NCBI RefSeq assembly: GCF_053078305.1
Contig: NZ_CP166879.1
Length of the DNA: 64,000 bases
Strand: one strand, 5' to 3'
Shown: in pieces, positions 31,753-46,700 of the stretch
Layout of the letters: every line of letters begins with the position of its first letter
Position numbering within the stretch: the stretch's first letter is position 1
Program-made: the position numbers

Positions 31753-34700
31753 TCAGAATTAACTTAACTGTGAATCATGATGTTTTTAGCATCCTGATAA
31801 GAGCTAAAAGTTTTAACGCTACGTTGTTCGATGGTCAACGCAACGAAAAACAATTCAGATTTTCTTTATAAGAATAGCTGATATTTATTAAGTTAATATT
31901 AAGCAGTGAAATTTAGTCTATAAGATAAATGGCAAAAAAAAAGCCCGGTGCAATATACGCCGGGCCTCAATTTTATTGTTGGTTAAATCAGATTAATCCA
32001 GCCATTCAGTATGGAACACACCTTCTTTATCAATGCGCTTATAAGTATGTGCACCGAAATAGTCACGCTGTGCCTGGATCAGGTTCGCAGGCAGAACAGC
32101 GGCACGGTAGCTATCGTAATAGGCAACCGCAGCGGCGAAGGTCGGAACCGGGATACCGTTCTGTACTGCATAAGCAACGACATCACGCAGCGCCTGCTGG
32201 TAGTCATCGGCAATTTGCTTGAAGTACGGAGCCAGCAGCAGGTTAGCGATCTGTGGATTTTCGGCATAAGCATCGGTGATTTTCTGCAAGAACTGCGCAC
32301 GGATGATGCAGCCAGCACGGAAAATCTTCGCGATTTCGCCGTAGTTCAGATCCCAGTTGTACTCTTCAGACGCCGCACGCAGCTGAGAGAAGCCCTGAGC
32401 GTAAGAAACGATTTTGCCCAGATACAGAGCACGACGAACTTTTTCGATGAACTCACCTTTGTCGCCAGCTGGCTGCGCTTGCGGGCCAGAGAGAACTTTA
32501 GATGCGGCAACACGCTGCTCTTTCAGAGAAGAGATATAACGAGCAAACACAGACTCGGTAATCAGCGACAGTGGTTCGCCGAGATCCAGCGCGCTCTGGC
32601 TGGTCCATTTACCGGTACCTTTGTTTGCTGCTTCATCCAGAATCACATCAACCAGGTAGTTACCGTCTTCATCTTTTTTGGTGAAGATATCTTTGGTGAT
32701 GTCGATCAGGTAGCTGCTCAGTTCACCGTTATTCCACTCGGTAAAGGTCTGTGCCAGTTCTTCGTTAGAGAGATTCAGGCCGCCTTTCAGGAGAGAATAG
32801 GCTTCAGCAATCAGTTGCATATCACCGTATTCAATACCGTTGTGAACCATCTTCACATAATGGCCTGCGCCATCAGCACCGATATAGGTAACGCACGGTT
32901 CGCCATCTTCAGCAACGGCGGCGATTTTGGTCAGGATCGGCGCAACCAGTTCATAGGCTTCTTTCTGGCCACCAGGCATGATGGACGGCCCTTTCAGCGC
33001 CCCCTCTTCACCGCCGGAAACACCGGTACCGATGAAGTTAAAGCCCTCTGCTGAAAGCTCACGATTACGACGAATAGTGTCCTGGAAGAAGGTGTTACCA
33101 CCATCAATGATGATGTCACCTTTATCGAGATATGGTTTGAGGGAATCAATAGCAGCATCCGTGCCTGCACCTGCTTTCACCATTAACAGGATGCGACGAG
33201 GCGTTTCCAGAGATTCAACAAACTCTTTCACCGTATAGTAAGGAACCAGCTTCTTGCCTGGATTTTCGGCAATCACTTCTTCCGTCTTTTCACGGGAACG
33301 GTTGAAAATAGAGACGGTATAACCACGGCTTTCGATGTTGAGCGCAAGGTTGCGCCCCATCACTGCCATACCGACTACGCCGATCTGTTGCTTTGACATT
33401 GTTTACTCCTGTCAGGGGGTGGTCACCGCCGAGTGTGCGGCTTAAATGTGGTATAGATGTTAACTCACTCATAGAGATGGTGAATAGCATTACCTTTGCT
33501 ATACCACACTGAATGTCTCACCTTTTCCGTCATTTAAAACTTATTTATATGAAATTACTGAATTACTTGTTCAGTAACTCAAGGATAAGTTTTGTCTTTT
33601 CTTCCATCAGCGGCACATCACCGCGAGATTCCACATTCAACCGCACCACCGGTTCGGTGTTGGAGGTGCGCAGGTTAAAGCGCCAATCGGCAAAGGTCAT
33701 GCTGATGCCATCGGTGCGATCCACCGCCAGCGCCTCACGGCTAAAATGCTGTTCCACGCGGTTAATCGCCTCAACGGGTTGCGCCAGTTTGCTGTTGATC
33801 TCACCGCTTGCCGGAAACGCCGCCATCCGGTCGCGCACCAGTTCGCCCAGCGTTTTTCCTTTCAGGCACACCAGTTCGGCTACCAGCAGCCACGGGATCA
33901 TGCCGCTGTCGCAGTAAGCGAAATCACGGAAGTAATGGTGGGCGCTCATTTCGCCACCGTAGATGGCGTCCTCCTTGCGCATACGTTCTTTAATAAAGGC
34001 GTGTCCGGTTTTCGACATTACCGGGGTGCCGCCTGCGGCAGTCACCACATCAACGGTGTTCCAGGAGAGACGTGGATCGTGGATGATCTTCGCGCCGGGA
34101 TTTTTTTCGAGGAATGCTTCTGCCAGCAGACCGACAATGTAGTAGCCCTCGATAAACTGCCCTTTTTCGTCAAACAGGAAACAGCGGTCAAAATCGCCAT
34201 CAAAGGCAATGCCCATATCCGCGCCGTGTTTGATGACCGCATTACGGGTGTCGTCGCGGCATTCTGGCAGTAGCGGGTTAGGAATACCGTTGGGGAAATT
34301 GCCGTCCGGCGTGTTGTGCACTTTGATTAATTCCACGGGTGCGCCGAGGGCTTTAAAGCGGGCTTCAATGGCGTCCACTACCGGCCCCGCTGCGCCGTTC
34401 CCGGAGTTAATCACCAGCTTGAGCGGCGTGAGGTTTTTGACGTTGATATAACCGAACAGGTGATCAACGTAAGCGTCACGCAGATTGATTTGCTGATAGC
34501 GACCGCGTTTGGTTTCATCGACGGGAGGAAAGTCGTTGGCTTCTGCCAGGCGCTGGACATCGCGCAGTCCGGTATCACCGCTGATCGGGCGAGCCCCTTC
34601 GCGCACGAGTTTCATGCCGTTGTAATCCATCGGGTTATGGCTGGCGGTAACTTCGATGCCGCCATCCACGCCGAGATGGAACGTGGCGAAATAGATCTCT

Positions 34701-43700: not shown

Positions 43701-46700
43701 GAACTAGCTATAGCAAAAAATGGGATTACGCTTATTAGAATATATAAATATATACATCTATGAGATAATTCCGGATTGTATTTTTTAATGTAATTAACAT
43801 ATATATTAAAATAAAAAATATATGATAAAAATGTTGAAAAAAAAGGTAAAAATTCTTTTTTTATTCCTAAAGATTTAAATAAATAAATAACAGTATTTAT
43901 TGTAATATATCTATTGTCACTATTTTCAAAAACTTTGTTTAGTGATGTTTGACTAACATATAAATATGTTTCATAATGCCTAGTCAAATCCCAATTTTCA
44001 TAAGGTATTAACAAAAATGCTAGTACCCCTAGCATAAATGAACATACATAAACACTCCATCTGGCCCCATTAATCATTTCAATCATTGCTAATAATAAAG
44101 CAAGAGGCAAATAAATTATTGAAATAAATGAAGCACTAATTTTTATGTTTCTATTAATCATCTTTTTATAACTTTTCTCATAAATAGGTAAATATCTGCT
44201 AACGCCGCATATAATTTCCCGTTTCTTTTCTTTCGGATTTGTCTCGCTTCCTCCAATGCTAATTTTACATTTTTAGCGCTAAGGCCGGCATTTCTCATCG
44301 AAGAGATATTTTTATCAATATAATGAAAGATATAACCTTGTTTCTTCAATTTTAGCAAAAGATCATAATCAGAAGCAATTTTATAGCTAGTATTAAATAA
44401 ATTTTCTCTGTGGATATCTTTTTTAATAAATGTGGCCGGATGGCTTAAATTCATATCTATATGTAGTTTCCAGTCTTTAGGCCTCCGGACCTGAATAACA
44501 TCCAAGCTATCAGCCTCTACCAAAGACATATTTCCATAAATAACATCATATTTATTTTCTTTCATTACTTTTATTACTTGACATAATACATCTTTATTAT
44601 AAAAATCATCAGCGTTTATAAATCCTATATAATTCCCAGATGCTTTTAACACACCTTTATTCATTGCATCATATATACCATTATCATTTTCAGAAATGAT
44701 ATATGAAATTTCATTTTTGTAAGAATTAACAATATTTAGAGTATTATCCGTTGATGCACCATCAATTATAATATATTCAATGTCATCATTGCAGTTTTGT
44801 GATAAGACACTTTTTATAGTATCTTCGATATACATTTCGCCATTGTACACAACGGTAACTATTGTTAAAGTTGGTTTATTCATTGTTAGCCCTACAATAA
44901 ATTTAAATTATTTAATTTATTTGTTTTCTTAATCAAAAAGTAAAATCTCGCCATTATTATAAACTCAGTTGAAATAACTCCTATTGCTGTACCAACTCCT
45001 GAGTATTCATTAGTCAAATAAGTAATTATCAGTAGGCCTATTAATCCACTGGTAGTAATAATTTTTGTAAACTCTTTTTTCATACCAATAGGGATCATTA
45101 CTAAAATTGCAATATAATTACTTACCGTAACTATTGCTGGAGTAAAAGCTAAAACCTTGAGTATTTCTAAAGATTCATGATACGTTTTTCCATACATGAT
45201 TAAAATTATATCGTCTGCAAAAAAGTAAAGAAATATGGAAAGTACGAACATCAGTGAAAATTGCCATCGAAACACTTTCCTGGCTAATAATAGTCCATCG
45301 TCATGATTATCCTTCATTATATAAGTTACTCTAGGAAAAACAGCTTGGGTTATAGGACCAATAACGCCTTGTAGTGCAAGCCTAATTTTATCTGCAGCGA
45401 TAAAATATCCCACTGCAGTTGTTCCTGATAATGCACCTAATATTATTGTTGAACTAGTAGTATAAAGGCTTATTGCTGCAGAGGAAATGAAGTAATGCCA
45501 TCCATCATAAATTAACTCTTTCATTTTGGATAAGGATGGTGGTACCCATATTATTTTTTTAAGAGAAAATAAAAAATATGTAGATATTATACCTGCAATA
45601 ACTGTTATTGATGATTGTATTGTTATCGCTATACCAAGATCCTTTTCACTTTTAACCAATAAAAATGTTAAACATAGTGTAAGTAAGCGTGCGGAAAACA
45701 TACTTATCGCTATTCCTAACATTTTTTCCAGCCCTTGAAAAAACCATACTGGATATATTAAATTTCCTACGACAGATATGTATGCAAGAATGATAAATTT
45801 AATTTGGTAATCAATGATATTCAATTCCGAAATTAAATAAATAATTAACAAACCAAGAGATGCAGCAATTATTTTGATAAACGTTACATTCCAAAAAACT
45901 TTACTTATGGAATCAGTATTTTCCCTTGATATTGATATTATTTTGGGCGCTGAGTAGTTAAATCCGTAATCAATAAATAATATAAAATATTGGACCACAG
46001 CAAAACTATACCCATATATCCCGTATCCTGTAGGTTCAAGGATCCTGACAAGATAAGGCAGTGTGACCAATGGAAATATATAATTGCCACCTTGAACGCT
46101 TAATAAATAGATGATGTTTTTTAACATAACGAGCCTACGTACTTAACAAGTCTTATTTTGCACGATAGTTTACAATTTGTTAAGTAATATGGGATAAACA
46201 TTTAATTCACGCTACCGCCCCTGGCTCAACAGCTACCAGCGTACTGCATGCACGTCCTAATTGTAACTAGCATTAACCGTTATGGTTAGTTCGAAAAGCT
46301 TAACTCTGAACGTTTTACCAAATCGCTTCAGAGATGGAGAAAATCTCAGCCTCCCACAATAAATGCCTATTGAAAAGTTATTGTTACTCATATTTAGAAC
46401 GGTATAAAGAAAGAATGAGGCAATGAGTACAATTAGCCCCACCAATCTTCACTGCCGTTATAATTTTCTTATCAACCGTTACATCCGGTCAGATTTTCAA
46501 TATTCGCTTAACAGCTTCTCAATACCTTTACGGAACTTCGCCCCTTCTTTGAGGTTGCGTAGTCCATACTTCACGAACGCTTGCATATAGCCCATTTTTT
46601 TACCGCAGTCGTAGCTGTCACCAGTCATCAGCATTGCATCAACAGATTGTTTTTTCGCCAGCTCAGCGATGGCATCTGTCAGCTGAATACGTCCCCATGC

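Follow-up and report, generated by a model that had tools for sequence, protein, structure and literature searches.

In Escherichia coli, the O11 O antigen is already known: work that appeared in 2011 (Li et al. 2011) covers its structure, its gene cluster and its relationship to Salmonella O:16, and describes the two antigens as closely related both structurally and genetically. The O11 pentasaccharide is made up of beta-D-GalNAc, alpha-L-Fuc, alpha-D-Man, another 2-acetamido sugar and one more sugar in alpha linkage (PMC4906483), and strain PCN033, serotyped as O11, carries a cluster that has been matched in print to that of O11 strain G1207 (HQ388393; PMC4578781). The O11 serogroup has been reported from enterotoxigenic strains, and in China it is prevalent among extraintestinal pathogenic E. 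coli of porcine origin (PMC4906483, PMC4578781). The provisional serogroup OX19 has a cluster 98-99.9% identical to that of O11, yet does not cross-react with O11 antiserum (DebRoy et al. 2016; PMC4732683).

Here we analysed a 64,000-nucleotide window of E. coli DNA (NCBI RefSeq assembly GCF_053078305.1, contig NZ_CP166879.1), in which an ORF scan found 12 intact minus-strand genes, flanked by gnd and galF and preceded by a JUMPstart/ops element, in the order wzx, GT2, wzy, GT4, GalE-family epimerase, GT4, gmd, fcl, gmm, manC, GT2 and manB. All 12 had been called in a first-pass annotation of the same DNA; each is an ORF at the coordinates below, on the minus strand, and profile searches confirmed the families.

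47636-48631, minus strand: gnu, Und-PP-GlcNAc 4-epimerase gene at the galF-linked locus (99.4% to the B771 gene)
46497-47393: galF, flank of the cluster
46208-46246, minus strand: JUMPstart element with ops octamer (Rfam RF01707, 57 bits; gathering score 35; E = 1.9e-10)
44892-46127, minus strand: wzx, O11-family O-unit flippase, 411 aa (at least 99% to O11-family genes; Pfam Polysacc_synt)
44158-44883, minus strand: GT2-family glycosyltransferase, 241 aa, inverting (sub-threshold NCBIfam WcaE/WcaA-type GT2 models)
42926-44161, minus strand: wzy, O11-family O-antigen polymerase, 411 aa (at least 99% to O11-family genes; Pfam EpsG)
41857-42924, minus strand: GT4-type glycosyltransferase, 355 aa, retaining (sub-threshold NCBIfam GT4-type models)
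40820-41836, minus strand: GalE-family 4-epimerase, predicted Gne-type (NCBIfam GalE, 427.7 and 448.9 bits, above cut-offs)
39744-40751, minus strand: GT4-family glycosyltransferase, 335 aa, retaining (sub-threshold NCBIfam GT4-type models; annotated 'glycosyltransferase family 4 protein')
38612-39733, minus strand: gmd, GDP-mannose 4,6-dehydratase (TIGR01472, 584.7 bits; cut-off 415)
37643-38608, minus strand: fcl, GDP-L-fucose synthase (NF047922, 537.7 bits; cut-off 500)
37185-37640, minus strand: gmm, GDP-mannose mannosyl hydrolase, Nudix (NF011963, 194.4 bits; cut-off 146)
35788-37173, minus strand: manC, mannose-1-phosphate guanylyltransferase / mannose-6-phosphate isomerase (TIGR01479, 740.5 bits; cut-off 373)
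34958-35704, minus strand: second GT2-family glycosyltransferase, 248 aa, inverting (Pfam Glycos_transf_2, 2.1e-28)
33563-34933, minus strand: manB, phosphomannomutase, GC-rich cpsG-like copy (NF011943 CpsG, 1053.7 bits)
31993-33399: gnd, flank of the cluster
29453-30430, minus strand: wzzB, chain-length regulator, an accessory backbone gene (NF012015, 607.4 bits; 978-nt gene in B771)

Two start positions follow the RefSeq annotation of identical genes, namely that of manC at 37173 (longest-ORF start, 37188) and that of the last GT2 gene at 35704 (longest-ORF start, 35716); the NF012015 match to wzzB begins at residue 20 of its longest ORF.

Base composition supports a foreign origin for the AT-rich core of the cluster (34958-46127), in line with the horizontal acquisition proposed in the first-pass annotation. 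This core has a GC content of 32.9%, and wzy, at 26.1%, is lowest in the cluster; the whole window stands at 47.3%, and gnd and galF at about 51%. The AT-richness previously ascribed to the cluster thus holds for the core but not for manB, at 54.6% GC. The final gene of the AT-rich block is the second GT2 (34958-35704; 100% identity to the O11 genomes B771 and FORC064), and manB lies outside it; with 97.1% identity over nucleotides 39-1371 to the window's colanic-acid gene cpsG (55934-57265), manB is recognisable as a copy of that gene. At the other end, upstream of the first gene, the coding strand carries JUMPstart and ops within the operon's untranslated leader. Their earlier placement ahead of the cluster is borne out by the RF01707 match and by the ops octamer, GGCGGTAG, an exact match at 46212-46219 (minus strand), 85 nt upstream of the wzx start. 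The JUMPstart element, with ops inside it, is the loading site of RfaH for antitermination.

Across 5,426 complete E. coli genomes, wzx is at least 99% identical to a gene in 65 (99.7-99.8% among the matches listed) and wzy to a gene in the same 65 (99.6-99.8% among the matches listed), where they are named 'O11 family O-antigen flippase' and 'O11 family O-antigen polymerase'. Under the O11-family name, the exact Wzx protein occurs on at least 1000 public contigs and the exact Wzy protein on 16. The 15.6-kb gnd-to-galF stretch is at least 80% covered in precisely those 65 genomes, collinear and 98.6-99.2% identical among the matches listed, and the 11,170-bp core aligns without gaps to four O11 genomes (B771, PCN033, 2016C-3878 and FORC064) at 99.68-99.85% identity, corresponding to 17-36 substitutions in 11.2 kb, with all 12 genes collinear. 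Serotyped PCN033 is 99.71% identical over the core and 99.8% identical in wzx, and its wzy is 6 nt and 3 aa apart from that of the window; it is through PCN033 and the RefSeq naming that the window is linked to the reference cluster of G1207 (HQ388393; Li et al. 2011). Flanking genes (manB, gnd, ugd, wzzB, galF and wcaM) are 94.5-98.3% identical to those of the O11 genomes, indicating the same cassette in a different backbone.

These results replace the earlier verdict that the serogroup was not assignable. The first-pass annotation had allowed for a new or variant serogroup, that is, a fucose-containing cluster whose wzx and wzy match no reference, and had named 98% identity in both genes as the mark of a known cluster. 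Both lie above this level relative to O11-family genes, their exact proteins are public, and the core is at least 99.68% identical, gapless and identical in gene content to four O11 genomes; a new serogroup is exceedingly improbable, and we rejected it. Near-identity to a cluster present in 65 sequenced strains makes the locus an ordinary known feature. We conclude that it is very probably the E. coli O11 (genotype Og11) O-antigen biosynthesis cluster, complete and apparently functional, with a standard Wzx/Wzy-dependent pathway. Direct observations cover the gene identities, their order and intactness, the near-identity with O11 clusters, and JUMPstart/ops.

Among the 65 O11-genotype genomes there are two allele groups, split chiefly by 6 aa changes in the GT4 at 41857-42924, and the window belongs to the minority group, which lacks serotyped PCN033. 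Of the 60 listed genomes, 18 carry a copy of this GT4 that is 100% identical to the window's, and 39, PCN033 among them (7 nt, 6 aa), carry one that is 99.3% identical. The GT2 at 44158-44883, named 'glycosyltransferase family 2 protein' in O11 genomes, differs from theirs by 2 nt and 0-1 aa. Because OX19 combines a near-identical cluster with a lack of O11 cross-reaction, sequence gives the genotype Og11 and not the serological phenotype. On an OX19 reading, the strain would express a serologically distinct antigen from nearly the same cluster, and the two O11-family allele groups would be two non-cross-reacting antigens; this might stem from a few altered residues in a transferase or the polymerase, or from modification genes at other sites in the genome. 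OX19 is indeed among the sets of DebRoy et al. in which clusters 98-99.9% identical show no cross-reaction (PMC4732683), and the allele groups, of which the window falls outside that of PCN033, differ mainly by those six residues of one GT4, with single changes also in wzy, wzx and other transferases. If this were true, a few residue replacements within a single transferase or polymerase would alter a linkage and thereby the serogroup. However, OX19 is rare (28 cultures against 527 of O11 at the reference centre; PMC4732683), both allele groups are 'O11 family' in RefSeq, and neither is tied to OX19 by any evidence; we consider it unlikely that the strain is OX19.

Wzx matches Pfam Polysacc_synt (4.7e-57) and Polysacc_synt_3 (4.8e-14), as a MOP-family flippase does, and Wzy, named 'O-antigen polymerase' in RefSeq, matches EpsG over residues 39-371 (5.7e-13), as an integral-membrane polymerase does. 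No wzm/wzt ABC transporter was found among the 12 ORFs of 100 aa or longer in the gnd-galF interval, each of which is accounted for. As had been proposed, this combination indicates that the cluster follows the Wzx/Wzy-dependent pathway.

Four glycosyltransferases match GT2- or GT4-type models in NCBIfam and Pfam profile searches, while gmd, fcl, gmm, manC, manB and the GalE-family epimerase all score above NCBIfam curated cut-offs. Alignment of the epimerase with K-12 GalE (51% identity) shows Cys299 replacing Tyr299 (GDVAECW vs GDLPAYW), and its best PDB matches are human GALE chains (426 bits), ahead of E. coli GalE (386 bits), with 1LRK/1LRL also matched. Tyr299 of E. coli GalE is a bulky gatekeeper, a role known from work on Y299C, and its equivalent in human GALE is Cys307. 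We predict that the cluster enzyme is of the Gne type, a UDP-Glc/UDP-GlcNAc 4-epimerase supplying UDP-GalNAc and possibly UDP-Gal as well. Additionally, gnu, which lies upstream of galF and outside 33563-46246, belongs functionally to the O-antigen system; its counterpart in B771 is annotated 'N-acetyl-alpha-D-glucosaminyl-diphospho-ditrans,octacis-undecaprenol 4-epimerase', and the locus linked to galF has been described (PMC3682973). The published O11 composition matches this predicted complement of GDP-Man/GDP-Fuc genes, gnu, Gne-type epimerase and four glycosyltransferases, a pentasaccharide being what WecA/Gnu initiation plus four transferases would yield. The unit of four to five sugars with L-fucose and GalNAc foreseen in the first-pass annotation is consistent with the O11 pentasaccharide, which contains both (PMC4906483).

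A working scheme for the O11 system can be proposed, with the enzymatic steps, the Gne specificity and the assignment of transferases to linkages inferred from family knowledge. Transcription of the minus-strand operon would start downstream of galF, and JUMPstart/ops in the leader would recruit RfaH, allowing RNA polymerase to transcribe the 12-gene operon to its end. ManB and ManC would provide GDP-mannose, part of which Gmd and Fcl would convert to GDP-L-fucose; Gmm, a Nudix hydrolase and their usual companion, would hydrolyse GDP-mannose, and the GalE-family enzyme with Cys for Tyr299 would supply UDP-GalNAc as a predicted Gne-type epimerase. WecA, encoded elsewhere, would transfer GlcNAc-1-P onto undecaprenyl phosphate, and Gnu would epimerise the product to Und-PP-GalNAc, making GalNAc the first sugar. 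The two inverting GT2 and two retaining GT4 enzymes would add the remaining four sugars to complete the O11 pentasaccharide, which Wzx would flip and Wzy polymerise, with WzzB setting chain length and WaaL, also encoded elsewhere, ligating the product to lipid A-core.

Expression of such a system also needs wecA, waaL and lipid A-core genes, all located outside the 64-kb window, and a defect in these or in rfaH, or a regulatory change, would leave the cluster silent and the strain rough or O-nontypable. Insertion sequences do occur within this cluster in other O11-genotype genomes (ES7 and ES8, IS1 in wzy; MS 198-1, IS4). In the window, however, all 12 ORFs are free of insertion sequences and show no internal stops or indels relative to O11 genomes, JUMPstart/ops is intact, and gnu and wzzB are present; we regard silence as highly unlikely and retain the reading of an apparently functional O11 cluster. 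Beyond typing, by which the window can be labelled genotype Og11, its importance is small. The locus touches one question, the lack of cross-reaction between OX19 and O11 despite near-identical clusters, which reaches beyond one window alone.

The first-pass annotation had likened the gene set to O86, O127 and O128, which have the GDP-L-fucose module (gmd-fcl-gmm-manC-manB) and the Wzx/Wzy pathway in common with it. All megablast matches to wzx and wzy fall within O11-family clusters, and these serogroups were rejected as identities.

The nearest Wzy relative outside O11 (56% identity) lies in a collinear cluster of the Salmonella O:16 type, a kinship that is the one published for O11 and O:16 and that supports the O11 assignment. 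Salmonella enterica O:16 (group I; for example serovars Saphra, Hull and Hvittingfoss) has the same gene order, gnu-galF-wzx-GT2-wzy-GT4-epimerase-GT4-gmd-fcl-gmm-manC-GT2-manB-gnd, an equally low GC content (28-39%) and likewise a Cys at the GalE Tyr299 position. Its cluster proteins are 50-85% identical to those of the window (Wzy 56%, Wzx 67%, GT4 57%, Gmd 85%), pointing to old shared ancestry of two distinct clusters; despite the identical gene order, the O:16 type was rejected as an identity on the Wzx (67%) and Wzy (56%) values against Salmonella locus L006. The OX19 cluster would be about as close to the window as that of O11, from which OX19 is serologically distinct. The O11 clusters themselves, in G1207 and in PCN033, B771, FORC064 and 62 more complete genomes, have the same JUMPstart leader, cpsG-like manB and galF-linked gnu, and differ from the window in alleles only, those of the window grouping with B771 and FORC064 and not with PCN033.

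Twelve open reading frames (ORFs) were found on the minus strand between 33563 and 46246, all free of internal stop codons and each exactly where the first-pass annotation had placed it. Database searches upheld its account of the gene anatomy, which, from galF to gnd, reads wzx, GT2, wzy, GT4, GalE-family epimerase, GT4, gmd, fcl, gmm, manC, GT2 and manB. The gmd, fcl, gmm, manC, manB and epimerase products scored above the curated NCBIfam cut-offs; among the transferases, two ORFs matched GT4-type NCBIfam models and one a GT2-type model, while the last is Glycos_transf_2 (Pfam). 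Wzx and Wzy matched Pfam Polysacc_synt and EpsG, respectively. NCBIfam HMMs returned no family for either protein, showing that the RefSeq 'O11 family' label they carry does not derive from an NCBIfam model, and their identity was established from DNA identity, RefSeq annotation and exact-sequence look-up. The cluster is bordered as follows.

gnd, ugd and wzzB: one flank
galF, a 331-aa epimerase gene and wcaM: the other flank

Of 5,426 complete E. coli genomes, a single set of 65 matched both wzx (44892–46127), annotated there as "O11 family O-antigen flippase", and wzy (42926–44161), annotated there as "O11 family O-antigen polymerase"; with every match at 99% identity or above, the new or variant serogroup entertained in the first-pass annotation is refuted on its own terms. 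At least 80% of the 15.6-kb gnd–galF stretch was covered in exactly those 65 genomes, collinear at 98.6–99.2% among the matches listed. Under the name "O11 family", an identical Wzx protein is found on 1000 or more public contigs, and an identical Wzy on 16. The complete O11-genotype genome B771 has the identical set of 12 genes in identical order, with 99.7–100% identity per gene and no indels across the core (34958–46127, wzx through the last GT2 gene), and three further complete genomes of this genotype likewise align to the core with zero gaps.

Substitutions and gaps relative to the window core (11,170 bp) in four complete O11-genotype genomes
FORC064: 17 substitutions, 0 gaps
B771: 18 substitutions, 0 gaps
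PCN033: 32 substitutions, 0 gaps
2016C-3878: 36 substitutions, 0 gaps

A link from genotype to phenotype is provided by PCN033, which was serotyped as O11 and whose cluster was matched by its authors to that of O11 strain G1207 (GenBank HQ388393; PMC4578781), a sequence from Li et al. 2011. Judged by sequence, the cluster is an intact copy of the previously described E. coli O11 O-antigen gene cluster, with an ordinary Wzx/Wzy pathway predicted from its genes.

This assignment is one of genotype. The provisional serogroup OX19 and O11 are among the pairs with 98–99.9% identical clusters, and the two are recorded as not cross-reacting serologically (DebRoy et al. 2016, PMC4732683), so that what sequence fixes is strictly the O11 genotype, Og11, rather than the phenotype; OX19 is rare, with 28 cultures against 527 for O11 in the same study. 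Two allele groups were apparent among the 65 O11-genotype genomes, the window belonging to the smaller. Among the matches listed, the GT4 gene at 41857–42924 is identical to that of the window in 18 of 60 genomes, and differs in 39 of the 60, including PCN033, by 7 nucleotides, 6 of them non-synonymous (E10K, T54N, T155S, T169K, E197Q and T335S between the groups), an unusually high amino-acid-changing share.

Insertion sequences were seen in other O11-genotype genomes: two bullfrog isolates, ES7 and ES8 (NZ_CM184333.1 and NZ_CM184330.1), carry IS1 in or adjoining wzy, and MS 198-1 (NZ_CP146687.1) carries IS4 inside the cluster. These three strains are probably O-rough or nontypable. No such interruption was found in the window cluster.

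Upstream of wzx, Rfam identified the following leader.

46208–46246, minus strand: JUMPstart element (57 bits; gathering score, 35)

It contains the ops octamer GGCGGTAG, with the wzx start 85 nt downstream of ops, and this arrangement suggests that the cluster is under JUMPstart/ops control.

The cluster had been described as much more AT-rich than its backbone, which is true of the core (32.9% GC against 47.3% for the whole window), with wzy lowest at 26.1%, but not of manB, which has a GC content of 54.6% and resembles the colanic-acid gene cpsG of the same window (55934–57265). The two are 97.1% identical across nucleotides 39–1371 of manB and differ over the first 38, whereas manC, gmd and fcl are only 68–71% identical to their colanic-acid paralogues, a pattern suggestive of gene conversion or recombination involving the two phosphomannomutase genes. 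Since manB is GC-rich and cpsG-like, the AT-rich cassette extends from about 34958 to about 46438. The genome of H104 (NZ_CP062811.1), which is not of the O11 genotype, matches 46439–64000 at 98.9%, and from the start of this match a recombination junction lies immediately downstream of galF. The 5′ end of cpsG also carries an Rfam-detected RNA motif that was not found at the O-antigen manB copy.

57270–57319, minus strand: algC RNA motif

Compared with B771, the flanks form a mosaic, with identities of 98.3% for manB, 97.6% for gnd, 96.4% for ugd and 96.8% for wzzB and, on the galF side (46128–50183), 95.4% for galF and 94.5% for wcaM, but 99.4% for gnu. At the end of galF (46497–46502, ...L-S-E-Y-stop), a Tyr codon occupies the position of the stop codon in the four O11 genomes, making GalF one residue longer at its C-terminus (298 aa instead of 297). 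The longest wzzB ORF begins at 30487, with the WzzB model matching from residue 20 on; the RefSeq gene is 978 nt long and starts at 30430, and one additional base relative to B771 lies upstream of this start, at 30451.

Further from the cluster, 3,849 complete E. coli genomes are collinear with the 21 kb from sbcB to the his operon (8000–29000), and none of the 5,426 complete genomes exceeds 98.7% identity there. Either the source lineage has no close representative among these genomes, or 8000–29000 is itself mosaic. Given the 98.7% ceiling, an origin outside E. coli was considered; it was rejected, as thousands of E. coli genomes align collinearly with the window at 95–99%, which is normal hot-spot mosaicism. 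Other RNA features lie outside the O-antigen cluster, the last three from Rfam.

3406–3481, minus strand: tRNA-Asn (GTT)
5230–5305, plus strand: tRNA-Asn (GTT)
7638–7713, plus strand: tRNA-Asn (GTT)
19779–19853, minus strand: sRNA STnc240
22151–22274, plus strand: His operon leader
52811–52881, plus strand: naRNA4, a REP-derived element, within the colanic-acid cluster

Genes for tRNA-Asn are known sites of island integration; an island here was rejected, because 4,596 genomes are collinear across the 8.5-kb stretch concerned (amn, yeeO, cbl, nac, ldtA). Overall, this is a known cassette in a backbone that has no close complete-genome match, an ordinary situation at this recombination hot spot.

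The predicted repeat unit of roughly four to five sugars, including L-fucose and probably Gal/GalNAc, proved correct as to size, L-fucose and GalNAc, and the published O11 pentasaccharide fits the gene set. As given in the text of a synthesis paper, in which residues D and E are unnamed, the unit has four alpha and one beta linkages and comprises beta-D-GalNAc with alpha-L-Fuc attached, alpha-D-Man, a second 2-acetamido sugar and one more alpha-linked residue (PMC4906483). The manB, manC, gmd and fcl products would supply GDP-Man and GDP-L-Fuc. The gene gnu (47636–48631), at the galF-linked locus, is annotated as an Und-PP-GlcNAc 4-epimerase and, under the rules set out by Cunneen et al. (PMC3682973), would make GalNAc the first sugar; the four transferases would then add the four remaining sugars. 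Formation of the alpha-L-Fuc linkage would require inversion, and that of the alpha-D-Man linkage retention, of configuration, and two GT2 plus two GT4 enzymes could fit in either of two ways: a GT2 enzyme makes the beta-GalNAc linkage, with the alpha-HexNAc as first sugar, or the unit starts with beta-GalNAc and a second L-fucose is residue E. UDP-GalNAc could come from the in-cluster epimerase, whose best-scoring solved structure is human GALE and which is 51% identical to K-12 GalE, with Cys299 in place of Tyr299. According to work on GalE Y299C, residue 299 reportedly gates access of N-acetylated substrates, and on this basis the epimerase is predicted to be a Gne-type enzyme.

Among relatives, a full-length 'O11 family O-antigen flippase' of Escherichia fergusonii is recorded in the same 90% cluster as the window Wzx; the O11 cassette, or at least its wzx, is thus also present beyond E. 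coli sensu stricto. Searching 5.8 billion proteins with Wzy recovered three clusters only: O11 itself (99%), one from Salmonella enterica (56%) and another at 34%. The Salmonella cluster has members from serovars Saphra, Hull and Hvittingfoss, which belong to O:16 in the Kauffmann-White scheme. A Salmonella contig carrying the 56% Wzy has the gene order of the window, from gnu and galF through manB and gnd; its cluster proteins are 50–85% identical to those of the window, and its epimerase carries the same Cys. The relationship between O11 and O16 already in print is thereby reproduced, and the form in the window is shown to be that of E. coli O11 and not that of Salmonella.
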